64,000 nucleotides of DNA from a virus (taxonomy: Duplodnaviria; Caudoviricetes), in IMG/VR virus record IMGVR_UViG_3300021387_001106, positions 34,633-98,632 of that record; one strand, written 5' to 3'. The notes beneath the pieces are model-generated. The model was given only the letters and a program-made list of their open reading frames with translations. It made no database searches and was not told the DNA's origin. Both the position numbers and the translations under genes were made by a program. Shown here one piece after another: positions 17,461 to 40,022 of the stretch (position 1 is the first letter of the stretch; each line of letters starts with the position of its first letter).

Positions 17461-20400
17461 ATGGCAAGCAGGAAGGAAAAAATCGACTCGCTCAGGCGCT
17501 ACACGAACTTAATACAGAAGCAGACCGGCAGAGTCGTAAGACCCTACCGCATGGACGGCTATGTCAACATGCTCACCAAGTACGGCACGTCCCGTGATGC
17601 TTCGGAAAGATATGAGTTTAAACAGGAACCACCGGTACCGGATGAACAGCTCACTTCCTTCTACGAGGGGAACGGACTGTTCGCCAAGATCATAGACGCA
17701 CCGGCGGAAGAGGCCATCAAACACGGCTTTGAGCTGGAAGGGCTTCAGGACCAGAACATCGAGGACTTCTACACGGAAGCACTTGAAGAGCTGGACTGGG
17801 AAGAGACCATGATGACAGCAGTCAAATGGGCAAGGCTTTTTGGCGGTTCCATCGCTGTCATGATGATCAATGACGGCAGGGGTGTTGATGAGCCTCTCGA
17901 CTGGAAGAACATCACATCTATCGACGACATCAGGATATATGACCGTTCCCTAATACAACCAGACTACGGAAGCATGTTCTCCTACGACCCGGACGACCCG
18001 TTCGGGACAAGGGGGAGCCGGTTGGGTATGCCTGAATACTACGATGTCTACAGCCGGTACGGGAGCTTCCGGGTGCACGACTCCAGATGCCTTGTATTCC
18101 AGAACGGTATACTCCCTGAGAACACGAGCAATTCTGTCTATCAGTTGTGGGGTATGCCGGAGTACATCAGGCTCAACAGGGCGATACGTGACGCTGAGGT
18201 CGCACACGGAACGGCTCCAAAGATGCTCGACCGCTCCATACAGGCGGTCTACCGGATGAAAGACCTTGCAACAGAACTTGCTACAGAGGAAGGCGAGGAC
18301 AGGGTTCTCAGGCGTCTACAGACCATCGACATGGCAAGGGGGCTTTTAAACTCCATCACCATCGACAGCGAGGGCGAGGATTACGACTTCAGGCAATTTT
18401 CATTTACCGGCGTTTCCGAGGTCATCGACACGACATGCAACTTCCTGTCTGCATTGACTTCCATCCCACAGACCATCCTGTTCGGAAGGTCACCCGCCGG
18501 TATGAACTCCACGGGCATGGGAGACCTTGAGAACTGGTACAACTACCTTGAACGCATCCAGAACCGCATGATAAAGAAGAACCTGAGGTATCTTCTGAGC
18601 ATCATCTTTCAGGCGGGCGTATGTACCGGTGAGATAGATGAGGTCCCACCTATCAAGGTCAAGTTCAACCCGCTGTGGTCACTGTCCGATCAGGAAGAGG
18701 CGTCCCTTGAACAGATGAGGGCGCAGGTTGCGAACACCAATGCCAACACCGCTATGGTCTACGTCCAGATGCAGGCGCTCGACCCTTCTGAGGTCAGAAA
18801 GAAACTTGCGGATTCCGAGGAGTTTGATGTTGAGACTCTGCTCGACGAATATACCGAGGAGGAACTGGAAGAAAACGACCCTATGAAGAAACAGGCGGAA
18901 GGTGCTATGCCGGGTATGGAAGGCGGCGGTATGCCGGGAATGCCGGGGATGCCTGCAATGCCCGGTGGACCGGAAGGAGCACCGCCTGAAGGGGCACCGC
19001 CACAGGCACCGGATGCTATGGGCGGAACACCTACTGGAAAGGTTCAGCCTAATGACGGCCCTAAACCCGAAATGGCGCAGGGCGGCAAAGAAAAGGATAC
19101 GGATATTGGCGGGAACGCCCCGGCTGCTGCACCGGCAGCAACAAAACTTCCTGTTGATATGAGCGGGAAGGAAAAGGACAAAGCAGAGGAAGCTAAGGAA
19201 GAGCTCAAGAAGCCTGTAGACAAGGCTAAAGACAACACTCAGGAATCGACAGCTAAGCCAGAAGAAAAGGCAGAAGATGCAGAGGACACTCTGCGCAATG
19301 CATGGCTTGGTGTCGGGCCTGAAGAAGAAAAGCCCTCTGATAAAAAGATTATCAAAAAGCCAAAAAAGCCCGTCGACCCGCTCCCGGGGGATACCCTTCG
19401 GAACGCGTGGCTGGGAATCACTCCAAAAGAAGAAGAGGATGAGGAGGACACGCTCACAAAAGCATGGCATGGAACAGAACCGGTCGATACTGAGGATACG
19501 CTCAGGAACGCATGGCTCGGTAACATTCCCGTGAAACCGCCTCATGGCTCCAGGATCGTCCGTACACGCAAGGGGGATATTTCTATCAGGGACTTCCGTG
19601 CGGCGTCCAGAGAGGACGAAGAGAACCCTCTGACGGCAATGTACGACCATGAGATCACCGCCAGAAATGGCAAGACCTACAGGGCGTTTGAGGGCGAAGG
19701 CTACAAAGCCTATGGCGAGAGGATGCGTGAAAGCTCCCGTATGGATGCGGGTGCGCAGGGTGCAGTCGGCGTGTATGTCATCAAGGATGGCAAGATACTG
19801 ACAGGCATTCGTGGTGAAGGGGATGGACAATACCTTCTCTGCGGTCCCGGCGGACACATCGAAGAAGGTGAGACCCCCGGACAGGCTGCAATACGCGAGA
19901 CACAGGAAGAGTTTGGTATCACACCCATGGAGCTTATCCCGTTCGGGAAAGGGGAAAAGCAAAGCAACGGTCTACGGCCTGACCTGTTCCTATGTGTCAG
20001 GTTTGAGGGGAAACCCAAGTGCGATGAACACGAGATGCACAATCCGAGGTTCACAGCCATCGAAGAGATCGAGCACTCGGGCCGCCTGTTCAGGCCGTTT
20101 GAAAACGGCATCCAGAAGCTGATACAGGCAGTTACTGGAAAGAACATCCACGCAGATGATGAAAAGTGGATTACTGTCAACGGAACACACGTACTTGTTG
20201 ATGATGATGGAACCGCTAAAAACGGCGGCAAGCTCAAAGGAATGTCTTTTTCAAAAGCCGAGAGCGAGGAAAGCGCAAAGCAGACCAATGCTCCCGGCTC
20301 AAATAAAATACTCTTCCAACCGTCAAAGACTAAGATTAACAGGGAAATCTCTGATATAGCGGATAAGAGCACGCAGGATACGGTTGAAGATGACATTAAG

Positions 20401-21633
20401 AAGATTGGGAAGCTGCTTGACACACTTGAACCCGGCTCCGTAGTCACTGTCCCGGCAAATCTTGCGGGGGATGATAAGTACACCTATACAAAAGATGAAG
20501 ATGGAAGATGGGGTGGAAAAGGCACCAACGGAACATGGAAAGCTGAGGACATCGCGTGGGATTTTCTCTATGAAGACCCGAGGGAACGCGCATATATCAG
20601 CAAGTCCGCATTATCGGAAACTGAGAAAGAAAAAGACAGACAGAGCTATGAGGCACGGAATTTCCGCAATCAGGAATCCCCGTGGGCCGGTGACAACTCA
20701 TTGGCTCAAATGGCTGAGGTACAGCTTCAGAGGGAAGACCTGAAGAAAGCCGGTGAAGGCACCGTAGCGGTCGATAAGGATGGAAGACAGCTCCAATGCC
20801 ACGGAGATGGCGTATGGACAGACAGGGACGGAAACATCGTGAAGAATCCATCCGGGCTGAAAGTGGAAGGTGACTACTTCGATATAAACTGCGGATTGAA
20901 CGGCATGGATCCTATCGAAATAAGCAAGGTCAGGGACGTGTTCGATAAAATGCCACCGGATATTCAGGGTATATACGAAAAAACCTTCAGGGAACATGGC
21001 GTAAGACCGTCTGAGGAAGGATGGGACATCTCATATTTCAAACCGTCAGATGGCCGTGTATATCTCCGCGAGGGGTCGTCAGCGGGCACCTTCTTCCACG
21101 AGATGAGCCATGCGCTTGACAGAGGGGCCGTAGACATAGAGTACGTAAAAGAAAACGGAGAGAAATACAGGGTGACGTCTGCGGCGGAAAACCTTGACTG
21201 GCTTGCGCATCCGCTTAAAGAAAAGGGAAGAGAAGACTTCGAGACGATGGCAAAAATCGTCGGATTTAATACTAACGGGAAGGGATGGTTCGCCAACGAG
21301 AAAGAAGAACAGGCGTCCGTCCGACAGTTCATCGACTGGGCATATAAGTATTCCGATATACCGGGATTTGAATGTGTCAGCGATGCAGTAAGCGCAATGA
21401 CATATGACGTATGCGGGGCAAGCATATACTCTGGCGGTCATGACAGGCAGTATTGGACAGGCTCGTACCTTCAGGGCAGAAAGACATCTGCAACGAGCGA
21501 TGAATACTGGGCGAATTTCTGTGAACTTAAAGCGATGCGCTACGATACTGCTCTAAAACTCCTGAAAGTCATTACGCCGAACAGATATGCTGCGGCAGAG
21601 GCGACCTACAAAGAAGCCTTTAAGAAGAGGTAA
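17461..21633 (+). CDS. portal protein (DUF1073-like) fused to Nudix hydrolase and HExxH metallopeptidase-like domains
   Basis: N-terminal ~480 aa portal-like (KIIDAPAEEA, ARLFGGS, IPQTILFGRSPAG, FNPLW); Nudix box GGHIEEGETPGQAAIRETQEEFG; FFHEMSHALD. Confidence 0.85.
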   Translation: MASRKEKIDSLRRYTNLIQKQTGRVVRPYRMDGYVNMLTKYGTSRDASERYEFKQEPPVPDEQLTSFYEGNGLFAKIIDAPAEEAIKHGFELEGLQDQNIEDFYTEALEELDWEETMMTAVKWARLFGGSIAVMMINDGRGVDEPLDWKNITSIDDIRIYDRSLIQPDYGSMFSYDPDDPFGTRGSRLGMPEYYDVYSRYGSFRVHDSRCLVFQNGILPENTSNSVYQLWGMPEYIRLNRAIRDAEVAHGTAPKMLDRSIQAVYRMKDLATELATEEGEDRVLRRLQTIDMARGLLNSITIDSEGEDYDFRQFSFTGVSEVIDTTCNFLSALTSIPQTILFGRSPAGMNSTGMGDLENWYNYLERIQNRMIKKNLRYLLSIIFQAGVCTGEIDEVPPIKVKFNPLWSLSDQEEASLEQMRAQVANTNANTAMVYVQMQALDPSEVRKKLADSEEFDVETLLDEYTEEELEENDPMKKQAEGAMPGMEGGGMPGMPGMPAMPGGPEGAPPEGAPPQAPDAMGGTPTGKVQPNDGPKPEMAQGGKEKDTDIGGNAPAAAPAATKLPVDMSGKEKDKAEEAKEELKKPVDKAKDNTQESTAKPEEKAEDAEDTLRNAWLGVGPEEEKPSDKKIIKKPKKPVDPLPGDTLRNAWLGITPKEEEDEEDTLTKAWHGTEPVDTEDTLRNAWLGNIPVKPPHGSRIVRTRKGDISIRDFRAASREDEENPLTAMYDHEITARNGKTYRAFEGEGYKAYGERMRESSRMDAGAQGAVGVYVIKDGKILTGIRGEGDGQYLLCGPGGHIEEGETPGQAAIRETQEEFGITPMELIPFGKGEKQSNGLRPDLFLCVRFEGKPKCDEHEMHNPRFTAIEEIEHSGRLFRPFENGIQKLIQAVTGKNIHADDEKWITVNGTHVLVDDDGTAKNGGKLKGMSFSKAESEESAKQTNAPGSNKILFQPSKTKINREISDIADKSTQDTVEDDIKKIGKLLDTLEPGSVVTVPANLAGDDKYTYTKDEDGRWGGKGTNGTWKAEDIAWDFLYEDPRERAYISKSALSETEKEKDRQSYEARNFRNQESPWAGDNSLAQMAEVQLQREDLKKAGEGTVAVDKDGRQLQCHGDGVWTDRDGNIVKNPSGLKVEGDYFDINCGLNGMDPIEISKVRDVFDKMPPDIQGIYEKTFREHGVRPSEEGWDISYFKPSDGRVYLREGSSAGTFFHEMSHALDRGAVDIEYVKENGEKYRVTSAAENLDWLAHPLKEKGREDFETMAKIVGFNTNGKGWFANEKEEQASVRQFIDWAYKYSDIPGFECVSDAVSAMTYDVCGASIYSGGHDRQYWTGSYLQGRKTSATSDEYWANFCELKAMRYDTALKLLKVITPNRYAAAEATYKEAFKKR
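19282..19524 (+). repeat. four EDTLRNAWLG-type peptide repeats in the portal linker
   Basis: EDTLRNAWLG, GDTLRNAWLG, EDTLTKAWHG, EDTLRNAWLG. Confidence 0.85.
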
Positions 21634-21638
21634 AACGA

Positions 21639-22087: not shown

Positions 22088-23251
22088 ATGGAACGGATAC
22101 AGGCGATAAAACTGAAATCCATACAGATACGCTATCGACTCAGACAGAGGATGGACGGCGGCCCGGGTTCTGGCAACTGGGGGCACGAGGGGAGACCCGG
22201 CAAGATCGGCGGATCGGCGGAAGGCGGCGGCACACATAACCGACAAAAGAACAGGTTCGGCGGCTATACCTCGTTCAGCAAATGGAGAAAAGAATCTGCG
22301 AGGAGCCACGCGCTTACGAGTCAGGACATAAAGGATGTCTACGACTTCGAAGACATTATCATTGTCGACAAAGACGGAAACCGATACCAGAGGAGCGGGC
22401 ACAACTTTGAGTGCAAAACGACCGGGGATAGAAGGGATTTCGCTATTGGGGATGAATGCCGGCTCATCATCCCGAACAAGCTCAGTCCGAATTACAAGGT
22501 CACCCGCGATGATAAGAAGGCAATGGCCTTGAATCAGGAACGGTTTGAAAGAGCGTTCTACCCGGAGGAAAGAGGCGATGCCGATACCAGATACAGGTCT
22601 GAAGCCGGGGAAATATGGAATGGATGCAGCGAAAAAGAAAAAGATTCCATGTATAGATATACCTCGTCGGAGTATAGGAGGATAAACAAAAATGTTCGCG
22701 GCGGTAATACCGATGACGAGGAGTGCAACGAGACCATAGCAGCTATCACGGATGTGATAGACAGGTCCGAATTGAGACAGGATAGTGTCCTCAGGAGAGG
22801 AATATCGCTGGGAGCCGCTGAGAAACTGTTCGGGCTGCCAGAGGGGTATCTGGAGGCCGGCAATCATGCCGATGAAGGGAACATCTCCATGGTCGGCAGG
22901 GTCGGAACTGATGATGCGTTCATGAGCTGCGGTTCATCCCGAGATTCCGGGAATGACCGTCAGGTTGTTCTGGAGATTCTGGCTCCTGAGGGAACCAAGG
23001 CCATGTATTGTGAACCGTTTTCCGCGCACGGCTTGGGTGACAGAAAACTGTGGGACGGGAAAAGCGGACAAGAATACTTTTCCTCTGAATGCGAGAGCCT
23101 TTTGCAAAGAGGAACCACTCTACAGGTCATCAGCCACGAGATGAAGGACTCGTTTGGGTTTACATACCATACGATGAGAGCGGTTATTTTAAGGCAGGAT
23201 ACAGGAAGTTCTGAATACAGTCAAAAGATAAAAAAGGCAAAGTGGAATTGA
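22088..23251 (+). CDS. VIP2/C3-like ADP-ribosyltransferase with RMD-GGPGSGNWGH leader
   Basis: YTSSEYRRIN..., LRRG, FMSCG, SECESLLQRG (R-S-ExE). Confidence 0.75.
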   Translation: MERIQAIKLKSIQIRYRLRQRMDGGPGSGNWGHEGRPGKIGGSAEGGGTHNRQKNRFGGYTSFSKWRKESARSHALTSQDIKDVYDFEDIIIVDKDGNRYQRSGHNFECKTTGDRRDFAIGDECRLIIPNKLSPNYKVTRDDKKAMALNQERFERAFYPEERGDADTRYRSEAGEIWNGCSEKEKDSMYRYTSSEYRRINKNVRGGNTDDEECNETIAAITDVIDRSELRQDSVLRRGISLGAAEKLFGLPEGYLEAGNHADEGNISMVGRVGTDDAFMSCGSSRDSGNDRQVVLEILAPEGTKAMYCEPFSAHGLGDRKLWDGKSGQEYFSSECESLLQRGTTLQVISHEMKDSFGFTYHTMRAVILRQDTGSSEYSQKIKKAKWN

Positions 23252-23296: not shown

Positions 23297-24406
23297 ATGC
23301 CATCAATTCAGAATGACTTGAAAAGGATCCGCCTTTCCCTTAAAAAACGAAGAGAAGACGGATATACGGGAGAAAAAACATGCACAGGCGCATATAAAAC
23401 GCATGGGAAAATTGACCGGGGGGCCGCAAGTGCTATAATAAAGTTGAAGGGGGGGAAGGTACGGGCAGATAGCTGCCAAAAAGGACAAGCGGACGGCGGA
23501 CCGGGAAGCGGAAACTGGGGACATGAAGGCAGGGACACAGGTGAACCCGGCGGTTCAAAGCCCGGTGGCGGAAAGAAAAACAGGACATACCGCAATAAAA
23601 TAGGTTTCATTGCAACAATGAAGAAAGGAGACGCTAAACTTCTCGAACGGACAGACAGAAAGGTGGCTAAGATGAGGAAAAAGCTCCCCGGGCTCATGAA
23701 AGAAAGCCATGAAACATGGGAAAGCTGTGTAGCCGCCAGCAAAAGCGGGTCTTCAATCCCTTCCGGGTCTGAGGCAAGAAAAGACAGAGTTTTAAAAGGG
23801 CTTTCGCCGGGGGCACAGAAAAGGTATGACCGAGTTTTCGAAGCAGAACAAAGGATAACAAAAGACCTTATCGGCATTGCGTCCGACAGTGGAACTGAGA
23901 TGTACGGCTTGGATTTTTCGCTGAAGAAGGGTTCCTCTGTGGTAGAGAAGGTCGCAAGGAAAAGAGCGGCGGATATTGCGCGTGAACTTAAACCTAAAAC
24001 AGACGAAGAATATGTATCTCAACTCGGGGACCTTGTCAGGTACACACAACTTTGTGACCATAACAAGATGGCAGACGTCGCAAAGGGCACGCTGTCTTCA
24101 CTGAAGGCAAAAGGATATGACGTAGTCGAGGTAGACAACAAGTGGCAGGATGAGAAGTCCACATACAAAGGATTTCACATAATCGCAAAGGATAAGAACG
24201 GACAGCGGTTTGAACTCCAGATACATTCGAAAGAGAGTATGGATGTCAAGGAGCTTAACCATGTGCAATATGAAGTTGCAAGGCAGCCAAAAGCCAGCGC
24301 TTATGTCAGGGATACGCTCGACCCACAAATGGCTGAAAGAACTGCAAAAATGAAGAAGCCAAAAGGGATGAACGATCCCGCCTTGAAGTCGTGGAAAAAT
24401 GAATGA
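23297..24406 (+). CDS. RelA/SpoT-family nucleotidyltransferase (small alarmone synthetase-like)
   Basis: KKGSSVVEK, DLVRYT, YKGFH, FELQIH correspond to SYN1-4-like motifs. Confidence 0.75.
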   Translation: MPSIQNDLKRIRLSLKKRREDGYTGEKTCTGAYKTHGKIDRGAASAIIKLKGGKVRADSCQKGQADGGPGSGNWGHEGRDTGEPGGSKPGGGKKNRTYRNKIGFIATMKKGDAKLLERTDRKVAKMRKKLPGLMKESHETWESCVAASKSGSSIPSGSEARKDRVLKGLSPGAQKRYDRVFEAEQRITKDLIGIASDSGTEMYGLDFSLKKGSSVVEKVARKRAADIARELKPKTDEEYVSQLGDLVRYTQLCDHNKMADVAKGTLSSLKAKGYDVVEVDNKWQDEKSTYKGFHIIAKDKNGQRFELQIHSKESMDVKELNHVQYEVARQPKASAYVRDTLDPQMAERTAKMKKPKGMNDPALKSWKNE

Positions 24407-24419
24407 AAGGGGGGATAAA

Positions 24420-24677
24420 ATGAGAGAAGTGACCTACTATCTGGCGGATAACTGCGGTAACATTATCCTCATGAAACGTGTGCGCGACCCTAAAAAAGGT
24501 ATTTTTACCGGATATATCTGGAACCCGCACAAATGGGTCGAGGCATGGGAGCTTTGTTGTGATTACTTCTACGGATACGAACCCGCCAAAGTAACAGATG
24601 AAGAGGGGGCCAAGGCTTACATGGTCGAGGCCGGTGTAACCGGGGAACAGGCAGAGGAGTTCCTGAAAGAGGATTGA
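24420..24677 (+). CDS. small protein, candidate immunity partner
   Basis: G-rich RBS; directly follows the synthetase. Confidence 0.6.
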   Translation: MREVTYYLADNCGNIILMKRVRDPKKGIFTGYIWNPHKWVEAWELCCDYFYGYEPAKVTDEEGAKAYMVEAGVTGEQAEEFLKED

Positions 24678-24847
24678 TGAACGAAAAAACGCAAAAGGGG
24701 GGAATAACCTTCCGACCCGGTAAAGACGGCAGCATAGAGGCTGTCAAGGATGGTAAAGTGATAGGGCATATCTGGACGAATGATGATGTGGTCGATACGA
24801 ACGAAACGGACGGTAGAACCAATACTGAGAACAGCACGGATAAATAA
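24677..24847 (+). CDS. 56-aa protein homologous to an internal module of the 25881 protein (not in the ORF track)
   Basis: TGATG overlap; ITFRPGKDGSIEAVKDGKVIGHIWTND. Confidence 0.7.
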   Translation: MNEKTQKGGITFRPGKDGSIEAVKDGKVIGHIWTNDDVVDTNETDGRTNTENSTDK

Positions 24848-24958: not shown

Positions 24959-25801
24959 ATGACAGAATACAAGAGCTTTTTCAAAACTGTCGGGGGCAAC
25001 GAGGGCAACAAGTGCCACTACCCGACAAGACTTGATAGCTACGGGTGTGGCTGCGCACATGACTGCAAATACTGCTATGCAAGGTCGCTGCTGGAGTTTC
25101 GCGGGCTGTGGCGTCCCGAGGACCCGTCTGTTGCTGATATAGGCAAGATACGGCGTAAATTGGATAAAGTGGAACCGGGGACGATATTGAGGCTCGGCGG
25201 AATGACAGACTGTTTTCAGCCGATGGAACGCAAACTGGCCATCACATATCAGGTGGTCAGGGAACTGAACAAGCGCCGTATCGGGTACCTGATCGTGACG
25301 AAATCCGCCATGGTTGCGGATGACCGGTACATCGGTGTCTATGACCCGGAACTTGCCCATATACAGGTGACCATTACGGCAACAGATGATGCCGTGGCGC
25401 TTGGATACGAGAAAGCGAGTCCAATTTCAGAGCGTATCAAAGCAGTCGAGAAGCTACAGATGAATGGTCTGGACGTGGCCGTAAGGCTTTCTCCATTCAT
25501 ACCTGAGTATGTAGATTTTGATGTTCTGAACAGCATCAAATGTGACAAGATACTTGTGGAGTTCCTCAGGTCAAATGCCTTTATCCGAAAGACATTCCCA
25601 ATAGACTACTCGGAATACACGGTGAAGCAGAACGGATACTGGCACATGTCGCTCGACAGGAAGAAATACTGGCTATCAAAGATAACGGGTTTCAACGAGC
25701 TGACGGTATGTGATGACGAGACAGAAGCATACGAATATTGGAAACAAAACGTCAACCCGAATCCTGATGACTGCTGCAATCTTCGGAAGGTTGCAATCTG
25801 A
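24959..25801 (+). CDS. radical SAM protein (spore photoproduct lyase-like)
   Basis: GCAHDCKYCYA (CxxxCxxC), GGMTDCFQP, IVTKS, RLSPFIP. Confidence 0.8.
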   Translation: MTEYKSFFKTVGGNEGNKCHYPTRLDSYGCGCAHDCKYCYARSLLEFRGLWRPEDPSVADIGKIRRKLDKVEPGTILRLGGMTDCFQPMERKLAITYQVVRELNKRRIGYLIVTKSAMVADDRYIGVYDPELAHIQVTITATDDAVALGYEKASPISERIKAVEKLQMNGLDVAVRLSPFIPEYVDFDVLNSIKCDKILVEFLRSNAFIRKTFPIDYSEYTVKQNGYWHMSLDRKKYWLSKITGFNELTVCDDETEAYEYWKQNVNPNPDDCCNLRKVAI

Positions 25802-25880
25802 AGGAAGAACTCAAAGAACATAGACGATGAACTATGGGACAGCAATGACTGTTCTTTTTTTTGCACAGAAGGAGGCGCGG

Positions 25881-28800
25881 ATGACCACGCTGGATTTCAA
25901 TAAGGCGGTAATGGCATTTGTGTTCGCCTACCGTGCTGGAAATATCGAGAACGATTCTACACACATGGACAACGCTTACGATGAATGGCTCGAAGAAAAC
26001 CTCGATAAGTTTGAAGACGACGATTCAGAGGTGGCATTTGCCCAATGGAAGAACAGCGAGGGGGAAAAGCCAAGGGACTGTGATGACATCGACATGGTCG
26101 AGGCAATGTGGTTGGAATACAAAGGGCGGAGGAAAGACGGAAAAGACGATGAGGAAGGACGCTGGATTACCACGGAAAACAAGCATAAGGTGCATATCAA
26201 TGAAGAAGGCGTCGCTGACAAAGGGAATCCACATGTCCTTGCCGTGATGAACGAGGGGGAGAAAAGTGCGAGGAATAACAGCAGCCCTAAGGGGACGGCA
26301 AAGCACAAGATCGTTAATGGAAAAGATATTTCTGAATCTTACAGCGGTGAAGGAACCATAACGTCTGTCATACACGAACAGGGATTTGATGGGGTGCCTA
26401 AAGTCGTTTCGGATGATGAGTTTGATGAAGCTGTCAAAGCAAGCGGTTTTGTCGCTCAGAGGACATATTCATCAGAGTCGCCTGAGGTTCTGGATGCATA
26501 CCGGGAAGCACTTTACAGCGGGGAATGGTATGTGGAGTGTACTTATGGAAAGTCAGCATTTGGAAGGGGTATGTATACCGTATCCGATGCCTCGGGGACT
26601 ATAACAGAGGCTGCGGAAGAAGAGGTTGCGAAATATCGAAAGTATGGCCAACATAGCTATACGGAAACGATGACGCTTGCCCCGGGGGCCAAGATAGCAG
26701 ATTACAGAAAAATTGCAGAAGATTGGGAAGATGGCTTTAATCACTACAATGACCTTGAGGAAATAAAAGCCTTAGAGAATAGGGCTCAGGAAGATATTGA
26801 TAAAAAAATAAAAGGACTGGGCAAAAGAGGAAAAGAGTATCTTGATTGGGCAAAGCCTTTAGAAGAAGCCTTTTACAAAGAACAATTTAAGGTAAATTGG
26901 AAAGACGAAAAACAGATAGAAGAATACAACGGGCGGTATAAAAAATTTTACGAGGAAAAGAAAAGAAGGCTCAGCATGTTTGACCCGGATACTGCTCTTG
27001 CATTGGATAAGCCTCATAAGGCAGCTGAGAAAAGATTCAGGGAATTAGAAAAGGAGAAGTTCAAAAAAGGCATTGAGTTGCGTAAAAGATTCAAAGACAT
27101 CAACGCTTATGCAGCGTCGTTGGGATACGATGCGGTCAACGTACCCCACGGAAAGGGGCTCTTTTACACAATCATCCTGAACCGAACGAAGCTCATCATT
27201 AAAGATAAGCGAAATCGGAAAGATGATGAAGATGACAAGCACATCACCTTCCGCCCGGGAAAAGACGGACAGATGTTGGCTGTAAAAGACGGAAAAGTGA
27301 TTGGCTCGGTCTGGACAAACGATGTGCAGTCAGACGATATGCAACATGATTCCGATGAAAGCTCTGGTCCGGTGGAAAGCCTTGGGGACAAGCTCAGAAA
27401 ATTTAGGATGATCCGCAGAAAATATAGGCACGATGCATCCTTTGGAGACGAACCTGTTGATGAACTTATTGATGATTTCGGCCTTGGTGATGACGAAGAG
27501 TGGATAACAGTAAATGGCACGCATATACTCCTGAATCAAGAGGGCAAAGCGGTGAACGGCGGCGACCTTGCCGGGAAGGACTTCTCAAATGCGAAAAGCG
27601 AGCCGACCGTCGCACGCCGTCCTACACCGGAAGTCGGGAAGAGAAAGTCGACGGACTTCCTTCCACTGCATTCCTACAGGGATACAGAAACGTTTAAGGA
27701 CGCAGTGGCCTCTTATAAAGAAGCAAGTGAAAAAGCCGATGAGCTGTGGGCAAAAAGAAAAGAACTTGAAGAAGCTGTCAAAAGCGAGAGCCGACCGAAA
27801 CCGAAAGATGAATGGGATGAGGAAGATGAGTACCAGTCACTGATAGGGAAAAGGCCGAGGATATACACCGAAAAAGGAAAGAAACTCCAAGACGAGTTAT
27901 CAAAAGTCGAGAAGGAGTGGTTTAAACAGAAAAAAGCCAATGACGAAGCATCTGAAAAGCTCGATGCCATGAAAGAGCAGGAACATCAGCGTCAGGCTGC
28001 CGCCTATAAGCCGAACAAGTTCAAGGAAGCTAAAAAGGATGACTATGAAGGGTTCACGCTCGACAAGACCAGCAATTCATTTGGTGATGAGTACCTTCAG
28101 AACGGCAAGGGCAGGATCGTAGAGATGTCACCGAGGGAGTACCTTGAACGGTGTGCTTACGAGATATTCCACAACGGCACAATGGAAAGCACCATGGGGG
28201 CTGTTGACGAAAAGACAACGGACAAATACGCGGAGCAAATGAAGAACGGCGAGAAGTTCGACCTTCCATACCTGAACTACAAGGACATGGGACAGGAGGG
28301 AAGGCACAGGGCTGTAGCTGCATACAAAGCCGGTATCGAAACAATGCCGGTGCTCATTATCGGGGACCCGAAACACAGGAAAGATTCCAAACGACATGAG
28401 CGTATGGATGAAGAACCAGAAGAATGGATTACCGTGAACGGTAACCACATACCGCTTGATGGCGATAAGAAGCCTATCGGCGGACAGATGAAAGCGCTTG
28501 GGAAAGCAGCTCCAAAAGCAAAAGCCCGTCCTGCACACGGGGTGGTATCCAAAAAGACGTCACTCACTCCTGCTCAAAGGAAGCATTATTCGGACGAGCT
28601 CGAACGGATAACAGAAGCTTTCCAGAAGGAGAGGGATTTCCAGAAGAGTGTTAATCCAAAAGTGAAGGACTACGACCCGACCCCGTTTATTGAAAGCGAA
28701 AAGCGAGCAAAAGAACTCCGTGCGGAGGGGGAACGCCTCTGTGGGGAAATGCCGGCGGGGACAATTATCACTAAGGGCACCGAACTGTATGAGAAGACAG

Positions 28801-31130: not shown

Positions 31131-31131
31131 T

Positions 31132-34100
31132 ATGGAAAGACTGTCGCTCGGAGATCGAATGATGCTCGAAGCCGGCTTCCTTCCGATAATGTTTAATAAT
31201 AAAGGTAGCAGAAAGGATGATGATTGGGTAACCATAAGTGGCACACATGTACTGTTGAATGAAAACGGGAAAGCTCAGGGCGGAGGAAAGCTCAAAGGAA
31301 AGACATTTTCAAAAGCAAAGAGCTCCGGGGCTGGAACAGGAACCGGGGGTGCCTCGGCGCAGCGGACAAAGCGAATGCAGGATAAACTGTCAAAGGCGCT
31401 CTCCGGGAAAGGCTCCAAGGATGACAAATATGGCGCTGTAAGGGACATTCTCAAAAACTGCGAGGTTGGTTCCACGTACCGTGTCGGGGACGCGCTGTTC
31501 ACGAAGATGAAAGACACTGACGATGAGCGGGAAAGCAGCCTTGCCTTGGGAAACAGCGATTATGCGGACTGGTCTTTCAGTGACATGGTGCACATGATGG
31601 AATACCACTTCACCCATGAAAACGACCCGCCAGAATTTGTCGACAGGGGGAAGAAAAGGGCAGAAGTACAGGAAAAGATAAGCGAACTGAAGAAATCCGG
31701 TGAACTGAGCGGCACTGAGGAGATGAAGAAACTGGAACAGGGACTCATCTCAAAAGACAGCCCTGATTTCGGAAAGCCCGGAAAGTATGTCATGTACCGC
31801 AGCGGAAAAGTTGGGAAGAGGAGCGGTATGCTCTTCTTCGCACCTGACAAGGCGGGTGCTGACACTTACGCTGACCTGCATGATGGCGACACTGTGCAGT
31901 ATTCCGTGGATATAAAGAATCCTCTGGTGGTCACGGGTAGTGCTGATGGAGAGTGCCTGAGAAAAGCATGGCAGTCCCTTCACCCCGGACAGACGCCGCC
32001 AAAGAATCTGACCGGGTCATCTTGGAAGAAGATGGACAGGGAAAACGCTTCTGCGCTTGAGGGCTCACAATACGACTCCATCATTTATAAAATAGGAGAC
32101 AGGCCGCAGGAGATACAGATACCTGCAAAACGTGGCAAGGAGCTTGAAAAGCTCGCAACCTATACCACAACAGATTGGAGTCGGGCGGGACGAAGTATAG
32201 AAGACGCAATATTTGCGGACAAGTTCAAAGATGACCCGCATGACTTCAAACGAATCGACAGCAGAGAAGATTCCACTGACGACGACCTTTACGAAAACGA
32301 GGATTTCAGATACTTCCTGTGTGACTGGAAAAGGGCAAGGCATAAAGACGACGAAGAGTGGAAGACGATAAACGGGACACATGTTCTGGTCGACACGGAA
32401 ACGGGAAGTGTCAACAAAGGCCCGGATGGGCTGAAAAAATGGAGCGAGAGCAAGAAGCCAGGTCCGAATGGGTCTGGCTCTTCTCATTCTGGGACTTCTA
32501 CAGAAAAAGGGTTGTCCGGTGCCATGAAGCCCGCTCAGACGGGGTACGATATGACCCTCGATGATGGCTTTGATGATTTCGTCAGAAAGAACATGGGGAA
32601 CCGCAGGAATCCGAAAGCGCTGTACAGCTTTTATCACGAAGTCGAAGATAACGGCGGCGACGGGCACGAGGCTGTTAAGGATGAATACCAGAAATCCAGA
32701 CTGGCCATGTGTACAGAGGGTCTCAAGGAAATCAGCCGGGATGAAGCGGATGAAATCCTCTATGACAACCTGAACCATGGAACGGTACAACAGTGGTTCA
32801 GGGAATACAACCATGAGGTCAAGGACGGGCTGGTATGGCAGATGACACAGAGCCCGGGGGTACATAACGCAGCCCTGAACATCATGTACGGGAACTACAA
32901 GTACAACTGCATGGAAGAGGGGTCGGAGCCGCTTCCGTTTGAGCAGTTCCTTGTTACTCCAATCAAGATGTACAGAGGCGGCACCGGCATGGAGTACGAT
33001 GAAGCAGGAGCTTTTTCATCCTACACGTTCAACAGGAAAGTGGCAGAATCGTTCACTGGAAGCGAGGTGGGACAAGGCCACAGTTTTGACCCGAACGGCG
33101 TAGTGTATGAGGCTGAGATCCGTCCGATAGATACATATGGGAGTGTATATACGAACGGCGAATCTGAGATTCTGGTTCCGAAGATGATCGCGCCGAATAA
33201 GAACAGGGACAGTGCTGACAGCAGGGAAGATGAAGAATCCGCCAGAATGTTCAGTACAGTCGAACTGTTCGCTATGTTTTCAGTGTATGGTAACAGCTAT
33301 ACAGAGAAGAAGTTAATTGACATCGCAAGCCGGCATGGTACCATACTATTGGGAGGAAGAAACGCCCACGGGGATGAAAAGCCTGCCTCATGGATAAGCA
33401 CTGAGGAGGGCCACCATATACCCTTGAACAAAGAGGGAATCGCCATCGGCGGAGCCGGTGGATGGGCAACGGGCAAGGACTTCTCCGGGGCTAAAAGCGA
33501 GAGTAAAAGCAAACAGTCTGATAAGCCGGAAAAAAAGAAGAAGCCCGGGCAGAAAAGGGAAGCTCCACAGGGCGGAAAACCCTTTATCTACGTTGGGTCG
33601 GTTAAGCGCAACAAAGGTACAAAACCTAAGCCCACTGGTGGAAGCTCTGGAAGCTCGGAAAAACCTAAGGTATCTTCAGAGACTGGAAGGACGCCGGTAA
33701 GCAGGGTAACCCCAGAACCGACCGGGAAAAGTACGGCGGAAAAGAAACGGGAAACCAGACCTGAGGAAAAACGGCGGGAACATAGAGCTGAACCGAAAAA
33801 GGGAACAGCGGCTCATCCCTCTCCAAGAGGGGAAAACATTCCGTGCACCGGCATGAAGAATGACAACTGCGTGAAACTCCACGAGAAACACTACAAAGAA
33901 GTCGGGGCATCTGGCAGAGAGGATTACGAGAAAAAGGCAATAGACTTTATCAAACAGCCCTGCGGGGGTGACATCGACGGGTATTGCAGATGGCCTGAAC
34001 CCGGCTCCAAAAAGAAACCAGTCATTGTACGGTTCAACAGGAAGACCGGGGAGATAGGCTTCGGAATACCGGGCAGCTTCTTCCTGAGCTACTATGTTGC

Positions 34101-34194
34101 AAAGTATGATGAAGCGACTGGGAAGACGGATATTGATCGGGCTAACAGATATTTCGATAAGATTAAGAAACAGGAAGGCGGGGGAATAGTATGA
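31132..34194 (+). CDS. 1020-aa modular protein: three W-motif modules, two ART-like domains, C-terminal toxin-like domain
   Basis: GGAGG RBS; MYRSG..LFFAP..IKNPL..YDSII; MYRGG..SSYT..ESEIL; HEKH..E.G...Y...A..F. Confidence 0.75.
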   Translation: MERLSLGDRMMLEAGFLPIMFNNKGSRKDDDWVTISGTHVLLNENGKAQGGGKLKGKTFSKAKSSGAGTGTGGASAQRTKRMQDKLSKALSGKGSKDDKYGAVRDILKNCEVGSTYRVGDALFTKMKDTDDERESSLALGNSDYADWSFSDMVHMMEYHFTHENDPPEFVDRGKKRAEVQEKISELKKSGELSGTEEMKKLEQGLISKDSPDFGKPGKYVMYRSGKVGKRSGMLFFAPDKAGADTYADLHDGDTVQYSVDIKNPLVVTGSADGECLRKAWQSLHPGQTPPKNLTGSSWKKMDRENASALEGSQYDSIIYKIGDRPQEIQIPAKRGKELEKLATYTTTDWSRAGRSIEDAIFADKFKDDPHDFKRIDSREDSTDDDLYENEDFRYFLCDWKRARHKDDEEWKTINGTHVLVDTETGSVNKGPDGLKKWSESKKPGPNGSGSSHSGTSTEKGLSGAMKPAQTGYDMTLDDGFDDFVRKNMGNRRNPKALYSFYHEVEDNGGDGHEAVKDEYQKSRLAMCTEGLKEISRDEADEILYDNLNHGTVQQWFREYNHEVKDGLVWQMTQSPGVHNAALNIMYGNYKYNCMEEGSEPLPFEQFLVTPIKMYRGGTGMEYDEAGAFSSYTFNRKVAESFTGSEVGQGHSFDPNGVVYEAEIRPIDTYGSVYTNGESEILVPKMIAPNKNRDSADSREDEESARMFSTVELFAMFSVYGNSYTEKKLIDIASRHGTILLGGRNAHGDEKPASWISTEEGHHIPLNKEGIAIGGAGGWATGKDFSGAKSESKSKQSDKPEKKKKPGQKREAPQGGKPFIYVGSVKRNKGTKPKPTGGSSGSSEKPKVSSETGRTPVSRVTPEPTGKSTAEKKRETRPEEKRREHRAEPKKGTAAHPSPRGENIPCTGMKNDNCVKLHEKHYKEVGASGREDYEKKAIDFIKQPCGGDIDGYCRWPEPGSKKKPVIVRFNRKTGEIGFGIPGSFFLSYYVAKYDEATGKTDIDRANRYFDKIKKQEGGGIV

Positions 34195-34435: not shown

Positions 34436-34448
34436 CGTGGAGGAAATG

Positions 34449-35381
34449 ATGGAAAACAGGATTGATAAAACCATCGCGAGAATCAGAAAAGACCATAGAA
34501 CCCGAATGGACGCTGAGGAAAAATGGATAACGGTCAATGGAACACATGTAAAGGTCGATAAAGAGGGAGAGCTTAGTGGGGCAGTTGGCAAGAAGATAAG
34601 CTCCACATCAAAGACTACAAAGAAGTCATCCGGGCCTTCTAAAAAAGGTGTTTCCTCAGCAGCAAAGAGGATTACTGACATCATTAAAAAGATAGATGAT
34701 GGCAGTGTCCCGGATATGAGTGGAGCTGAACAGATCATGGATGAAGTAAAAAATCTACCAGATGGTTCAGTTATAAATCTTTCACTTTTCGGCAGTGATA
34801 TGGAATACACGAAAGGCAACGGGGGGTGGACAACGAACGGCGTTGATGTAGACGTGGATGAGCTTTTTAACGACATTTACGATGGAAAAAATCTAAAAAT
34901 AACACAGGGCAAAAAAAGCGAGAAAAATGGTAAGAATGCTTATTCGCCCGGATTAAAAGGGTACAACAAACTTATAGAAGACACGATGTCGAAAAAAGAG
35001 CCTGCGGAAAGAAGGGCATTTCTTGAAGCAAATGCACACTGGCTCAATGGAAAGCCAAAAGAATCGACAGACTACATAAAAAATCCTGACAACATGACTA
35101 AGAATCAAATGCTTGATGCCGCAAGTGATATTGCATACAAGGGGCAACCCGGGGACGTAATAGAAGTAAAGACGAAAGATCGCGGTGGAATTACATCAAC
35201 GTCAAGGTATATAAGAACTGACAAATATAACTGGATAGACGAAGGACAACTCTATAATTTAATGAATAATGCAACCGCTGGAAGACAAAATAAGTCTTCT
35301 CAAAATGAAATGTTTAGGGAAATTAAATATTTCATTGATAACGGAGAAATGCGTGGAATGAAATTTCACCGGTATTCATGA
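34449..35381 (+). CDS. putative head cargo protein (RMD + WITVNG motif), function unknown
   Basis: GGAGG RBS; TRMDAEEKWITVNGTHV. Confidence 0.7.
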   Translation: MENRIDKTIARIRKDHRTRMDAEEKWITVNGTHVKVDKEGELSGAVGKKISSTSKTTKKSSGPSKKGVSSAAKRITDIIKKIDDGSVPDMSGAEQIMDEVKNLPDGSVINLSLFGSDMEYTKGNGGWTTNGVDVDVDELFNDIYDGKNLKITQGKKSEKNGKNAYSPGLKGYNKLIEDTMSKKEPAERRAFLEANAHWLNGKPKESTDYIKNPDNMTKNQMLDAASDIAYKGQPGDVIEVKTKDRGGITSTSRYIRTDKYNWIDEGQLYNLMNNATAGRQNKSSQNEMFREIKYFIDNGEMRGMKFHRYS

Positions 35382-35444: not shown

Positions 35445-36860
35445 ATGAAACCTATTCAGCGGATAAAGCTCGATACCATCCGCATCAGACACTCTTATAA
35501 GAGAATGGACGCGGATGATGATACCCAGTGGATTACCATTAACGGTGCGCATGTCCCAATAGATACAGGGGGGAATCTCAGGGGAAGCGTCGGAAAGAAA
35601 ATAGCCAAGACTTCGACTGGTAAAAAGTCGTCTGGTGGTGGAAGCAGCTGGAAAAGGTCTGCCGACAAAGTACCTACGACAGCAAAGTGGGGAGGCGCTT
35701 CTGGCTCAAAAAAAACTGGTAGCAACAGTTCCGTAGGTCACGAAATGACTGGACATACTGGTAATCGTTATCAAGAAAGCGGAACGGAAAAAGGGAATCC
35801 ATATTCCACAGTGGCGGCTTCGAGGCCAAAGAAGAAAACCGTATATGGCAAGATGAAGGACAGCGAGTTTGTTCCAAGTGGGAGCTGGACTGAGAGAAAG
35901 CTCATAAAGGAGAATACAGCCAAGTCATCTTCAAACTCTGGCACCGGCAAATTCAAGATGCCAAAAAGCGGAAAAACAGGGATAACTCACCCAAATGGAT
36001 CAGAGGCGTCTCAGGAAGACATTGTTGATGCTGTAGAGTATATGAAAGGAACAGGGGACAAGGCTTCACTCAGAAAAGACATTGAGGCCGGTAAGTTCTC
36101 GAAGAAAGAGATCGAGAGATGCCTGGACTATCACGCCACAAAAGGGATTCCTTCCAGTAAGAAAAACTCATATTTTAAAAAACTTCAAAACGAAAGGAAC
36201 GGAGCTGAATCGTCGGAGAAACGACAGAGCACCACTAAAAATCCACACCTAAAAGATGGATGGGGAGACACTTACAGACATACCCCGGGGGCTGGAAGCA
36301 CATTTCAGGGATTATTCAAAGATGGAAAGCGTGTCGGGTATATTGAACACTGGGAAGATGATGGTGACCATGGGTATTCCGTCTATAAAGACGACAATAC
36401 ATTCTTAGGCGGTTTTCGTTCGGCAGATAAAGCAAAAAAAGCGCTGGAAAAAGAAGCAGGAAAAAGCAGGACAAAAAAAGCAGTTGAGGCACCTGCATAT
36501 TCCGGGCCCCGGTCCGGTGACAAAAAGCTGGATTCTCAGTTTGATAAGACCCGGCAAGCACTTGCTGAATGGGAGAAAGCTAAACAGGATGAGCAAAAAG
36601 CGTACAAAAGAGTATGCAGAAAACTTGGGATAAAAGAGACGAGACAAGAAAGCATACACAGTTCTTCCAATCAGGCAAAAGTAAGGGCCGCAAAAGACCC
36701 GAACCTGATCGCCGCTGAAAAAGCGAGCGAGAACGCGATGTCAAAACATGCGAGGGCCACAAGCGAATTGAAAAAGCAGTATGGGGAGTATAGGAAGAAC
36801 GGCGGAAAAGCCATAAGCGAATACTACAGCGCAGCAAGAGAATGGGATGATTATGATTAA
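35445..36860 (+). CDS. putative head cargo protein (RMD + WITING motif), basic
   Basis: AAGGAG RBS; KRMDADDDTQWITINGAHV. Confidence 0.7.
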   Translation: MKPIQRIKLDTIRIRHSYKRMDADDDTQWITINGAHVPIDTGGNLRGSVGKKIAKTSTGKKSSGGGSSWKRSADKVPTTAKWGGASGSKKTGSNSSVGHEMTGHTGNRYQESGTEKGNPYSTVAASRPKKKTVYGKMKDSEFVPSGSWTERKLIKENTAKSSSNSGTGKFKMPKSGKTGITHPNGSEASQEDIVDAVEYMKGTGDKASLRKDIEAGKFSKKEIERCLDYHATKGIPSSKKNSYFKKLQNERNGAESSEKRQSTTKNPHLKDGWGDTYRHTPGAGSTFQGLFKDGKRVGYIEHWEDDGDHGYSVYKDDNTFLGGFRSADKAKKALEKEAGKSRTKKAVEAPAYSGPRSGDKKLDSQFDKTRQALAEWEKAKQDEQKAYKRVCRKLGIKETRQESIHSSSNQAKVRAAKDPNLIAAEKASENAMSKHARATSELKKQYGEYRKNGGKAISEYYSAAREWDDYD

Positions 36861-37094: not shown

Positions 37095-37129
37095 GGCTGC
37101 CAAGATTGCCCTGTAAGGCGCTTAAAGAC

Positions 37130-38044
37130 ATGGATGGTACAAATTATCAAGATAAGGCCCAGAACCTCGTACAGAGGAAATTCGGACGCAAGAAAAGGAT
37201 GAAAAGCAGGTACGCACCACGGTACCCGTCAAGTGCTGAGCGTGAGTACAGGCGCATCAACAGCGCGTATGTACAGATACTCGATAAGACGCTGGAGAAG
37301 CAGCTCCCTTCCATCCTGAAAGCCTATGAGAAACAAATGCGCAAGGACAGCCACGAGGACGGTGTCTTTGATTTCCTTCCGTTCCTTCGAAAGAAGATAC
37401 ATGCCATGGCGGACACGATAGCAAAAGCCATGGAAAGATTTCGGTTGCAGGAACAGATCGGGAAGATAGGGCGCATGGTTCAGGAGAGGTCTATCACCGA
37501 ATGGGGGTCAGCCCTAAAGAGCACCCTTGACATTGACATACCTGCGGATAAATACAGGGAAGGTGCATATGAGCAGGAGATGCAGAGATGGATTTCCGAC
37601 AATTACAACTATGTCAGGAACATACCTGTAGACACTCTGCTTGAGATTGAGAACCTGATAGCAGATGCTTTCCGGGACGGTGTTGACATAGACGTTCTCG
37701 AAGAGGAAATTCGGAACCGGCTCGATAAAGCGTTCAACAGGGGGCAGTTTGCAGCGATAAGTCAGGTGTCCTCACTGAATGCTTACATGATGAAGTCCTT
37801 CCAGACCGGGGCCGGCGTAAAGAACTACGTATGGATTTCATGCCGGGACGACAGGGTCAGGGAAAGCCACCGCTCATTTGACGGAAAGACGTTCTCATGG
37901 GATGACCCGCCAGAGGATTGGTACCGGACAAAGGAACGAGGGGTCGTCAGGACCGGGAAGAGATACAATCCCGGGGAAGCACCCGGGTGCAGGTGCTGTG
38001 CTGTTCCTGTGTTCGACAAGAAAACATTTGAGATTCCAAAGTAA
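37130..38044 (+). CDS. MuF / SPP1 gp7-like minor head protein (no C-terminal toxin)
   Basis: YVWISCRDDRVRESH...FSWDDPP...PG...CRC. Confidence 0.85.
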   Translation: MDGTNYQDKAQNLVQRKFGRKKRMKSRYAPRYPSSAEREYRRINSAYVQILDKTLEKQLPSILKAYEKQMRKDSHEDGVFDFLPFLRKKIHAMADTIAKAMERFRLQEQIGKIGRMVQERSITEWGSALKSTLDIDIPADKYREGAYEQEMQRWISDNYNYVRNIPVDTLLEIENLIADAFRDGVDIDVLEEEIRNRLDKAFNRGQFAAISQVSSLNAYMMKSFQTGAGVKNYVWISCRDDRVRESHRSFDGKTFSWDDPPEDWYRTKERGVVRTGKRYNPGEAPGCRCCAVPVFDKKTFEIPK

Positions 38045-38061: not shown

Positions 38062-38089
38062 TTGACCTTACATGAGCAGATGGTATTAT
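38062..38089 (+). promoter_or_regulatory. TTGACC-N16 promoter
   Basis: TTGACC-N16-TATTAT with TG extension. Confidence 0.6.
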
Positions 38090-38112
38090 ATACTTGAAAG
38101 GGGGCTTACTGT

Positions 38113-38370: not shown

Positions 38371-38435
38371 CCGACTGAAAAGGACTGGCATTACGCTGGT
38401 CCTTTTTGTGTGGAACATTTTCAAAGGTGACCGTT

Positions 38436-40022
38436 ATGGACAGACTTCAGATGAATATGCTTGCCGAGATAGTAAGGATACGGCATCAGCTCCGCAGAAG
38501 ACGTATGCAAAACTCCGAAATGGACCGTGTAGGGCTTTCTGGTACAATAAAAGTATCCGGGGAACCAAACCGGGAAGACGATGAAGGAACCTGGGTCACC
38601 ATTAACGGAACGCATGTTGAGATTGACAAGGAGACTGGGGGTATCACGAAGGGCCCAAAAAACCTGAAGGACTACTCCGAAAAAAAGAAGGGAATAAAAG
38701 CAGCGGGACGGAAGGCAATCGATACAGCAAAGAGCAAGTGCGATGACCTGAAGAAAAAAATGGACAAGGCGGAGGCGGCGGAAAAGGAATGGGAGGATAA
38801 GGAGTATTTAGCACGCCTTGATGTGGCTTTTGCTAAAGGACACATCAACATCGTGGAGGATAATCTCAAAAAAGCAAAGGCTGAGCTCAAGAAGTACGAT
38901 TCTGGTCGCTCAGACGAAGAACTGGACAAGGCAATCAAAGACACTCAGAAAGAGATGGATGAGCTGCTGGAATGGATCGACGCACATCCACGTGAGCATG
39001 GGGAACCGCATGAACAGTATTTGGAGCGTCGCCACAAGAGAGAACTTTACTCGGATGCAATGAACAGGTATCTGAACGCTTCCTCTGAAAAACATGCAAG
39101 GGAAGACCTGAAAAAAGCAGAAGCGGATTATCATGAGACTGTTGCAAAACTTGAGGCGGCTGAAAAGGAACATGAGAGGATAAAAGCGGAGGAGCCAAAA
39201 GCATATCAGAAAGCCCGAGAGGAATATAACAAAGCCGCCAAAGAAAGAAATGAGGCTGTATTAAAGACGTTCAAAACTGCTGATGACTGCGAGACATCAC
39301 AGGATGCCACGGACTATATCCGTGCGAGGGAGTATTTTGACCAGAGTGAAGGCTACCATAAATCTGACAAGAATACCGACCTGACAAAAATGTCTCCAGA
39401 GATGGCCATTGCCCATGCGAGGACGCTTGACCGTTTCTTTGGTGATTATCCCGGCCTGAAGGGGAGATTTGAAGGAATTGACTGCCGTGATATGAGTAAA
39501 GAGCCCGGATACGAGTCAACCTATGGATATGCAAGCGGAACGATGGTATCCTTAAATACGAAGTATTTTGGACCGGGCGGCAAGGGAAAAGAATCGTACG
39601 AGAAAGACTGCCATGACTTCAAGCTCTCGCATAACGGCTTCCATCCAAAGGGGACATCTGTCGAGGCGGTCCTTGACCACGAGTTTACACACGCAATCGA
39701 GGCACTGCTGAACAAATGGCTCGGGAATGGGCAGAAGGCTTCAGACATCATCATGCAACGGGCTCAGGAAAAGATGACAGGATATTACGCCAGAAGCAAC
39801 GAGGACTATGTAAGGGCACAGGTCAGCGGATATGCAAGAGAGAACAGGGGCGTAAAACCCGATGGAAAAGGCGGGGCAACTGTTGATAAAGCCTATGGCG
39901 CCAACACTGAGTTCATAGCTGAGGCGATGGCAGACGCACGGAACAACAAGGCACCGGCCCTGTATTCTTATGCGGTAAGGGAAGTAATGGAAGAAATGAT
40001 GAAGGAGGCTGGACTTATATGA
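38436..40022 (+). CDS. putative head cargo: W motif, coiled coil, HExxH metallopeptidase-like domain
   Basis: NREDDEGTWVTINGTHV; DHEFTHAIE...EFIAEA. Confidence 0.75.
   Translation: MDRLQMNMLAEIVRIRHQLRRRRMQNSEMDRVGLSGTIKVSGEPNREDDEGTWVTINGTHVEIDKETGGITKGPKNLKDYSEKKKGIKAAGRKAIDTAKSKCDDLKKKMDKAEAAEKEWEDKEYLARLDVAFAKGHINIVEDNLKKAKAELKKYDSGRSDEELDKAIKDTQKEMDELLEWIDAHPREHGEPHEQYLERRHKRELYSDAMNRYLNASSEKHAREDLKKAEADYHETVAKLEAAEKEHERIKAEEPKAYQKAREEYNKAAKERNEAVLKTFKTADDCETSQDATDYIRAREYFDQSEGYHKSDKNTDLTKMSPEMAIAHARTLDRFFGDYPGLKGRFEGIDCRDMSKEPGYESTYGYASGTMVSLNTKYFGPGGKGKESYEKDCHDFKLSHNGFHPKGTSVEAVLDHEFTHAIEALLNKWLGNGQKASDIIMQRAQEKMTGYYARSNEDYVRAQVSGYARENRGVKPDGKGGATVDKAYGANTEFIAEAMADARNNKAPALYSYAVREVMEEMMKEAGLI

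Follow-up and report, generated by a model that had tools for sequence, protein, structure and literature searches.

The stretch analysed here, hereafter the window, is the right-hand 64 kb (64,000 nucleotides) of a 98,632-base virus record from IMG/VR (IMGVR_UViG_3300021387_001106, positions 34,633 to 98,632; Caudoviricetes), for which the completeness estimate is 96%. It holds eleven copies of a short peptide beginning with tryptophan, each at the core of what we term a W header module. The nearest cultured phage is the myovirus Faecalibacterium phage FP_Brigit, with 58% portal identity, and the source is a Brigitvirus-like gut phage. The genes lie on the plus strand, and profile, PHROG and Pfam annotation place the modules in the head module of the genome, where a large terminase with a homing-endonuclease/intein-like insert is followed by a small basic protein, a portal (PF06381) with an extension of about 900 residues, an ADP-ribosyltransferase (PF03496), a RelA/SpoT-like protein, a radical-SAM protein, two giant proteins (1767 and 1038 residues), a stand-alone MuF gene amid three mid-sized proteins, a DUF2213 protease with an acidic scaffold, a cement protein and a PF09950 capsid protein. 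W carriers have the same head-module setting in relatives and in more distant phages.

We built a profile from the eleven copies and ran it on the six frames of both the window and the whole record. Each copy scores 57–73 bits (domain E-values of 1e-16 to 1e-21) and no twelfth module was found in either, in agreement with an earlier note on this DNA, which had counted eleven copies in six proteins; each tryptophan codon that it listed heads an in-frame module. All are on the plus strand. Module 1 (20134..20280) lies in the portal fusion (17461..21633), a protein in which the PF06381 portal is followed by a linker with four DTLRNAWLG repeats, a NUDIX domain (PF00293), the W header, placed after I-H-A-D, and a domain that contains an HExxH motif (at 21097). 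The 1767-residue cargo polyprotein (25827..31130) has four header-led units, opened by module 2 (26127..26282; the variant RWITTENKHKVHINEEG), module 3 (27471..27614), module 4 (28389..28541; after E-R-M-D) and module 5 (29805..29957; the variant SWITLKNGNHIPLD..GGAGGW, after V-R-G-D). Three further units are found in the 1038-residue cargo polyprotein (31078..34194), opened by module 6 (31189..31341; after S-R-K-D), module 7 (32326..32478; the variant WKTINGTHV, after R-H-K-D) and module 8 (33358..33513; the variant WISTEEGHHIPLN), and behind module 8 come a long linker rich in Lys and a C-terminal domain resembling the one that ends the FP_Brigit portal. The remaining proteins carry one copy each: module 9 (34488..34640, in the protein at 34437–35381) and module 10 (35493..35642, in that at 35445–36860) both come after an Arg-rich N-terminal leader ending in R-M-D, and module 11 (38562..38708, in that at 38406–40022) comes after N-R-E-D in a protein that ends in an HExxH domain.

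The peptide was originally described as W(I/V)T(V/I)NGxH(V/I), which proved too narrow: six of the eleven copies fit the strict form W[IVL]T[IVL]NG.H[IVL], but the other five (WITTENKHKV, WITLKNGNHI, WVTISGTHV, WKTINGTHV and WISTEEGHHI) are variants, and W-x-T-x-x-G-x-H describes the set more generally, with W and H invariant among the eleven and T and G at 90% or above. The flanks are as the earlier note had them. Ten of the eleven copies are preceded, at no more than 13 residues, by an [R/H/K]-x-D tripeptide with an acidic stretch after it, and a Gly-rich continuation is present in five, as GG.L.GK.FS.AKS after the tryptophan codons at 20167, 27501 and 31225 and as GGAGGW..GKDFSGAK after those at 29835 and 33391, with a Lys/Ser-rich linker coming next. 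The claim that the DNA is diverged and the peptide under selection also stands, since the codon is the same for only 36% of identical residues and no two copies have an exact word longer than 13 nucleotides in common; such divergence with a kept peptide implies that the copies are old and maintained by selection on the peptide.

The module is not confined to this genome. A profile search of 1.84 billion representative (metagenomic cluster) proteins gave 583 carriers with E≤1e-3, of which 88 reach E≤1e-10. When considering the 227 copies in the best 150 of the 583, W and T are invariant, G and H near-invariant (H about 97%) and N is conserved in about 51%; the flanks are Arg-rich at positions −16 to −8 and acidic at −5 to −1, and the linker at +30 to +70 is 16% Lys and 12% Ser. 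There are several subtypes, which differ in the second half of the module. The first copy lies within 100 residues of the protein start in 116 of the 150 and internal copies are present as well in 55, with a median distance of 326 residues between copies in one protein; at least 100 residues come after the last copy in 144, the other six having the look of truncated reading frames. What the module precedes varies. Among 104 carriers Pfam families include ADPrib_exo_Tox (13 carriers), portal (4), other ADP-ribosyltransferase families, NUDIX, Gln_amidase (glutamine deamidase), Zeta_toxin, ATLF (lethal-factor-like peptidase) and HD, and some homologues combine ADP-ribosyltransferase, NUDIX and portal in one chain, which bears out the view of a recurrent tag on unrelated cargo domains. 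Functional naming of the carriers gave only the generic TIGR01555 “phage-related protein”, on one portal fusion. In bacterial genomes and other collections the module is scarce: a pattern scan found one locus among 185,579 species genomes and four in metagenome contigs, the profile had one match among 399 Clostridia genomes (in a genome already found as a carrier), tblastn with one module found no match in 50,697 deposited phage records, and for the divergent carriers P0047 and P0039 a related-locus search yielded no relatives.

We read the W peptide as the core of a small folded header, some 35–45 residues long, that opens each cargo unit. It comprises a beta-hairpin (W-h-T-h-x-G-x-H-h-x-h-[D/N]), then a strand or turn rich in Gly, and lastly the Lys/Ser-rich linker. 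Given an alignment of 74 full-length carriers, AlphaFold2 models the module of P0050 at a predicted local distance difference test score (pLDDT) of 92–96 over residues 11–40, with strands at 13–16 and 19–23, another short strand and a helical turn. A model at this level indicates a small folded unit and not only a linear motif, and the beta-hairpin suggested earlier appears as the predicted core of the fold. With an alignment of 34 sequences the mean pLDDT was only 57, with a leader helix and the hairpin at low confidence. As for the module being a domain already described, no Pfam, NCBIfam or PDB-sequence match covers it. Pfam gave only a chance-level resemblance to Glucodextran_B (E-values of 0.002–0.04, below the cut-off), NCBIfam had no match, a PDB-chain profile search returned nothing at E≤10, the ESM Atlas had no usable match and Foldseek on the model gave nothing at E≤0.001, and VIA-align rows covered only residues 160–215 of the model, outside the module. 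A WW domain was considered as its identity and dropped, the Pfam match being absent. A literature search with the W motif string, or with that of the GG tag described below, gave no relevant paper.

The tripeptide upstream is closely linked to the module. In 176 of the 227 copies (78%) an [RKH]-x-D lies within 13 residues upstream of W, compared to 12% of random windows from the same proteins, while [RKH]-x-E is not enriched (10% against 13%), though Glu is common there. The D lies 2 to 12 residues before W. At P3 there is an Arg in 142 of the sites, Met, Ala, Leu and Phe predominate at P2, and the residue after the Asp is Ala, Glu or Asp. The density of [RKH]-x-D peaks solely at −10 to −1, at about nine times background, with depletion over 0 to +49 and no second peak further on, which fits a tag that stays on a new N-terminus and agrees with the proposal that the module would lie just downstream of an Asp-specific cleavage site.

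A candidate for the enzyme lies a few genes downstream. The gene at 41179..42771 (plus strand) encodes a head-maturation protease of the DUF2213 family (PF09979) that continues, in the same protein, into a very acidic scaffold part; it matches PF09979 with an E-value of 1.9e-33 (116 bits, cut-off 22) and phrog_530, head maturation protease, with 1e-80, and it adjoins the region of the capsid gene. Across 47 such protease-scaffolds D10 (IRLD), D205 (RR.D-G) and D464 (RLD-GK) are invariant in R-x-D context, D172 is likewise invariant, and so are H74, S124 and H154, which are likely the catalytic residues. The major capsid protein (PF09950, 43313..44392, plus strand) has T-R-F-D at residue 35, before its conserved core. 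Taken together, we infer that R-x-D is the site of the maturation protease and that the header is kept on the downstream product. The scaffold part (41850–42380) is extremely acidic, with repeated ENTDEDEEF units, and the cargo leaders are Arg-rich, a pairing that makes an electrostatic loading contact possible; the leaders may hold onto this acidic region. DUF2213 was found in nine of the thirteen viral records searched for it, twelve of which carry W modules and one (G013) only GG tags. A strict tie between the module and DUF2213 was therefore dropped, as the module is also found in records without it. A complex prediction between protease residues 1–180 (45-row alignment) and a construct of leader, site and W module (34-row) scored 0.01, which is evidence neither way.

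The W header is not the only element to occupy this position. Among 20 relatives gathered via the portal, we compared the header slots of orthologous portals and found an upstream RGE[RC]DPFE[TE]D followed by a W header in five and by D-GGPGSGNFGH.GR.G..GGS, a GG tag, in three, with a different cargo domain each time. In FP_Brigit the equivalent slot reads R-M-D-FNEADHPRDENGQF, a third (HPR) tag of pattern [FW]NE.DHPRD..G.F that begins FNEADHPRD and that was found at three further places, and one relative has a degenerate hairpin in the same slot. The W peptide is thus one of at least three header classes, and header and cargo move together. Three proteins in the window carry GG headers, namely the small basic protein (header at 16546..16611; D-GGPGSGNWGH.GRPG..GGS, after E-R-S-D), the PF03496 ADP-ribosyltransferase (header at 22154..22219; after Q-R-M-D) and the RelA/SpoT-like protein (header at 23492..23557), all on the plus strand, and this fits the picture of interchangeable headers. 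It had been claimed that W and GG tags never co-occur, which is true of this genome but not elsewhere: 12 of the 150 W carriers have GG tags at other junctions, each directly after Asp, and one portal holds both.

Several neighbouring genes have features of their own. Upstream of the packaging genes, 10947–12407 encodes a protein that joins a DAM-like methylase domain and a GNAT-like domain, both of phage type (PF22555 and PF22559). The large terminase (13620–16052) contains Hom_end and LAGLIDADG_3 (Pfam) at residues 229–325, ahead of the terminase N and C domains, and the insert is likely an intein or an inserted endonuclease. The C-terminal extension of the portal has four tandem (E/D)DTLRNAWLG repeats (19285–19540), seen in only the two nearest relatives (L015 and L016) of 20 related portals; we considered them as docking sites and dropped the idea, as they are confined to these two. 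The GG-tagged RelA/SpoT-like protein (23297–24406) also matches XopAD/skwp models of type III effectors in their C-terminal part (NCBIfam E-value of 6e-19, far below the cut-off), and a small gene (24399–24677) comes directly after it. A free gene of 57 residues (24674–24847) with ITFRPGKDG...AVKDGKVIG.(I/V)WTND recurs as a small module inside the 1767-residue protein (27243–27340), so that segments of the polyprotein have free-standing counterparts; the C-terminal part of the same polyprotein matches phrog_16619, a minor head protein family. The radical-SAM protein (24959–25801; PF04055, E-value of 3e-9) sits among the head cargo genes and lacks a header tag. A stand-alone MuF head-morphogenesis protein of 312 residues (PF04233) is encoded at 37106..38044 on the plus strand. 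The C-terminal domain of the 1038-residue protein (33790–34190; ..C.G...KH..H....G......Y..K...F...P.GGDIDG..) recurs at the C-terminus of the FP_Brigit portal (L014) and in a small protein of a distant phage (L043, 8798–9595), and matches the C-terminal part of phrog_15528 portals; it may be a PBECR-like nuclease of the kind reported in portal fusions by Iyer et al. 2017 (PMC5512222).

The reading that best accommodates these observations, and to which we give somewhat better than even chances on sequence evidence, is that of header-led cargo units that would be cut at R-x-D by the head protease, with the header as a retained handle. The effector proteins encoded between the portal and the head protease would be strings of cargo units, each opened by a header, and the DUF2213 head-maturation protease would cut at R-x-D, 2–12 residues upstream of W. 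If this happened after prohead assembly, every unit would begin with a short acidic stub leading into the W mini-domain, and single-unit proteins would lose their Arg-rich N-terminal leader, much as the T4 capsid targeting sequence is lost. The retained header could then be read by a putative conserved partner inside the head, as a handle by which each unit would be kept, ordered or released for injection with the DNA. The units are probably cut apart in the capsid and injected. We further entertain, as a tentative possibility that we would not favour as yet, that the three tags (W mini-domain, GGPGSGN[WF]GH.GR and HPR) together make up a portable cargo-header code read by a conserved head receptor, which might be the portal, the scaffold or the protease.

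Several observations weigh against the retained handle. An R-M-D precedes a NUDIX domain without any header, and so the header is not required by every unit. Some divergent carriers have the hairpin but no R-x-D. The same is true of a prophage-like region in a Clostridia metagenome-assembled genome, where terminase and portal differ and DUF2213 was not detected, and of a complete 107-kb phage with no detectable DUF2213. Portal-fused units carry the header, though they are in no need of a loading signal or address. Lastly, a paper on phage E217, whose capsid protein also belongs to PF09950, reports just that the first 65 capsid residues are not visible. Occurrence of the hairpin without R-x-D in other phage lineages means that site and tag are separable, and it seems that the site goes with the protease and the hairpin has a role of its own. 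That role must suit head proteins that have diverged almost beyond recognition.

As to the header's role, we place the in-head handle first, followed by a protease exosite, a function in or after ejection, DNA binding, a passive junction and self-cleavage. The exosite reading, which we regard as unlikely, would make the header a recognition cassette that renders the nearby R-x-D bond cleavable and has no later role. It would explain why headers are found at every junction, including those of portal fusions, which need release rather than loading, and it sits well with the tight linkage of site and header (78% within 13 residues) and with DUF2213 being present in nine of the thirteen viral records searched. 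However, the spacing of 2–12 residues between D and W is variable for such a cassette, the NUDIX domain behind R-M-D has no header, other lineages have the hairpin with neither R-x-D nor DUF2213, and one exosite would have to fit three unrelated-looking tags. A role during or after ejection, with the header as the leading end that threads an unfolded unit through portal and tail, as a refolding nucleus or as a handle for a conserved host factor, comes next and is again unlikely. The header would be the new N-terminus of its unit, with a flexible Lys/Ser-rich linker next, and its conservation far exceeds that of the head proteins in the phages that have it, as would fit a partner outside the head shell; the NUDIX unit without a header stands against this too.

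Binding to the packaged DNA by header and basic linker, by which cargo would be held on the genome and leave with it, is improbable. Its attraction is that every phage offers DNA as a partner, in keeping with the strong conservation of the header across diverged head types, and the Lys and Ser content of the linker at +30 to +70 points the same way. Yet an acidic stub lies immediately before the hairpin, and the module matched no nucleic-acid-binding family in Pfam, NCBIfam or PDB sequences. The junction motifs that precede the toxin domains of polymorphic toxins are thought to ease domain shuffling, and the header could similarly be a conserved linker that marks cassette borders and has no binding function. 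Header and cargo do swap jointly at the D boundary in orthologous portals, but the near-invariant W, T, G and H and the confident fold point to a structural or binding role, and copies whose longest shared word is 13 nucleotides cannot serve as recombination homology within a genome, so we consider a passive junction very improbable. Self-cleavage of the hairpin, with Thr as nucleophile and a cross-strand His as base in the manner of GPS-, SEA- or Nup98-type autoproteolysis, would nick polyproteins with no need of a protease. It is the least probable of all: although the invariant T and the H, conserved in about 97%, lie on adjacent strands and the module also occurs where no protease was found, the idea derives from residue identity, and the linked Asp-specific site would already explain the processing. 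FlhB-like N-P-T-H or Asn-Gly self-cleavage, with Asn cyclisation at N-G, was dropped because the N is only about 51% conserved.

Injection of proteins together with the DNA is an established ability of phages, but only in a few model phages is it understood how most of the cargo is selected, retained and let go. Here a compact conserved header, exchangeable for two other tags, is found on hundreds of protein clusters that include toxins and enzymes acting on the host. The header offers a sequence mark for finding injected effectors in metagenomes and is a candidate for tagging proteins of choice that are to be loaded into phage particles, and R-x-D gives a testable rule for DUF2213, an uncharacterised protease family. 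If the header code is real, a header of this kind set after a protease site would be enough for the loading, release and injection of any protein, and uncultured gut phages would possess a natural, re-usable system of protein-delivery tags. We found no earlier description of a folded header downstream of a cut and repeated at each junction, of its exchange with two other tags, or of an Asp-specific site tied to DUF2213.

Parallels exist in several known systems. Encapsulin cargo-loading peptides are linear tags that bind an HK97-fold shell protein; as there, a short tag is found on unrelated enzymes, here with an HK97-fold shell as predicted destination, but the encapsulin tags are linear peptides, whereas the W header is modelled as a folded mini-domain. 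The pre-toxin junction motifs of polymorphic toxins (VENN, PT-TG and the DPxGL of Rhs proteins), reportedly catalogued by Zhang and colleagues in 2012, are similar in being short conserved motifs that border interchangeable toxin cassettes, sometimes with processing, but they belong to secretion systems rather than capsids and their sequences are unrelated. In the MuF polymorphic toxins of temperate phages, which Jamet and colleagues are said to have described in 2017, a conserved N-terminal part carries swappable toxins into the head. The carrier there is the MuF domain, whereas here MuF is a separate gene (37106–38044), no W-carrying protein of the window matches MuF in Pfam, and the carrier is a header of about 35 residues.

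A closer parallel is found in the T4 capsid targeting sequence, present on IPI–III and Alt and removed by the gp21 prohead protease, and in the N-terminal propeptides of giant-phage ejection proteins that are substrates of SPN3US gp245 (PMC10052503). In these systems too a short N-terminal element is found on unrelated head-bound proteins (their presence in the head being a prediction in our case), and in T4 a head protease cuts after an acidic residue, as we infer here, with an injected ADP-ribosyltransferase among the cargo. The T4 tag, however, lies upstream of the cut and is lost, whereas the W module lies downstream of the likely cut with no site after it: a removable propeptide would have a protease site downstream of the tag, and [RKH]-x-D is enriched solely upstream. 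The W module also differs in being repeated inside polyproteins, in being a folded mini-domain, in having an Asp rather than a Glu site, and in having no sequence likeness to the T4 tag.

The proteins themselves most resemble the phage-type polyvalent proteins and the portal- and MuF-fused effectors of Iyer, Burroughs, Anand, de Souza and Aravind (2017; PMC5512222), which are predicted to be packaged and injected. In both cases strings of effector domains (in theirs ADP-ribosyltransferase, NUDIX, ParB-like, zincin-like peptidase, PBECR-like) are encoded among head genes and fused to the portal. Here one protein combines portal, NUDIX and HExxH domains, and the large terminase, portal, MuF, protease, cement and capsid genes flank the carriers. 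HExxH motifs are found at 21097 and 39678; no Pfam peptidase family matches these two proteins, and ATLF is found in one homologue. In the passages searched, that paper proposes processing by the zincin-like peptidase, and neither headers at the junctions nor an R-x-D site was found described in them. The header-led units, if they are cut as we suggest, would extend the published picture of polyvalent proteins to chains that are strings of header-led and separately released units.

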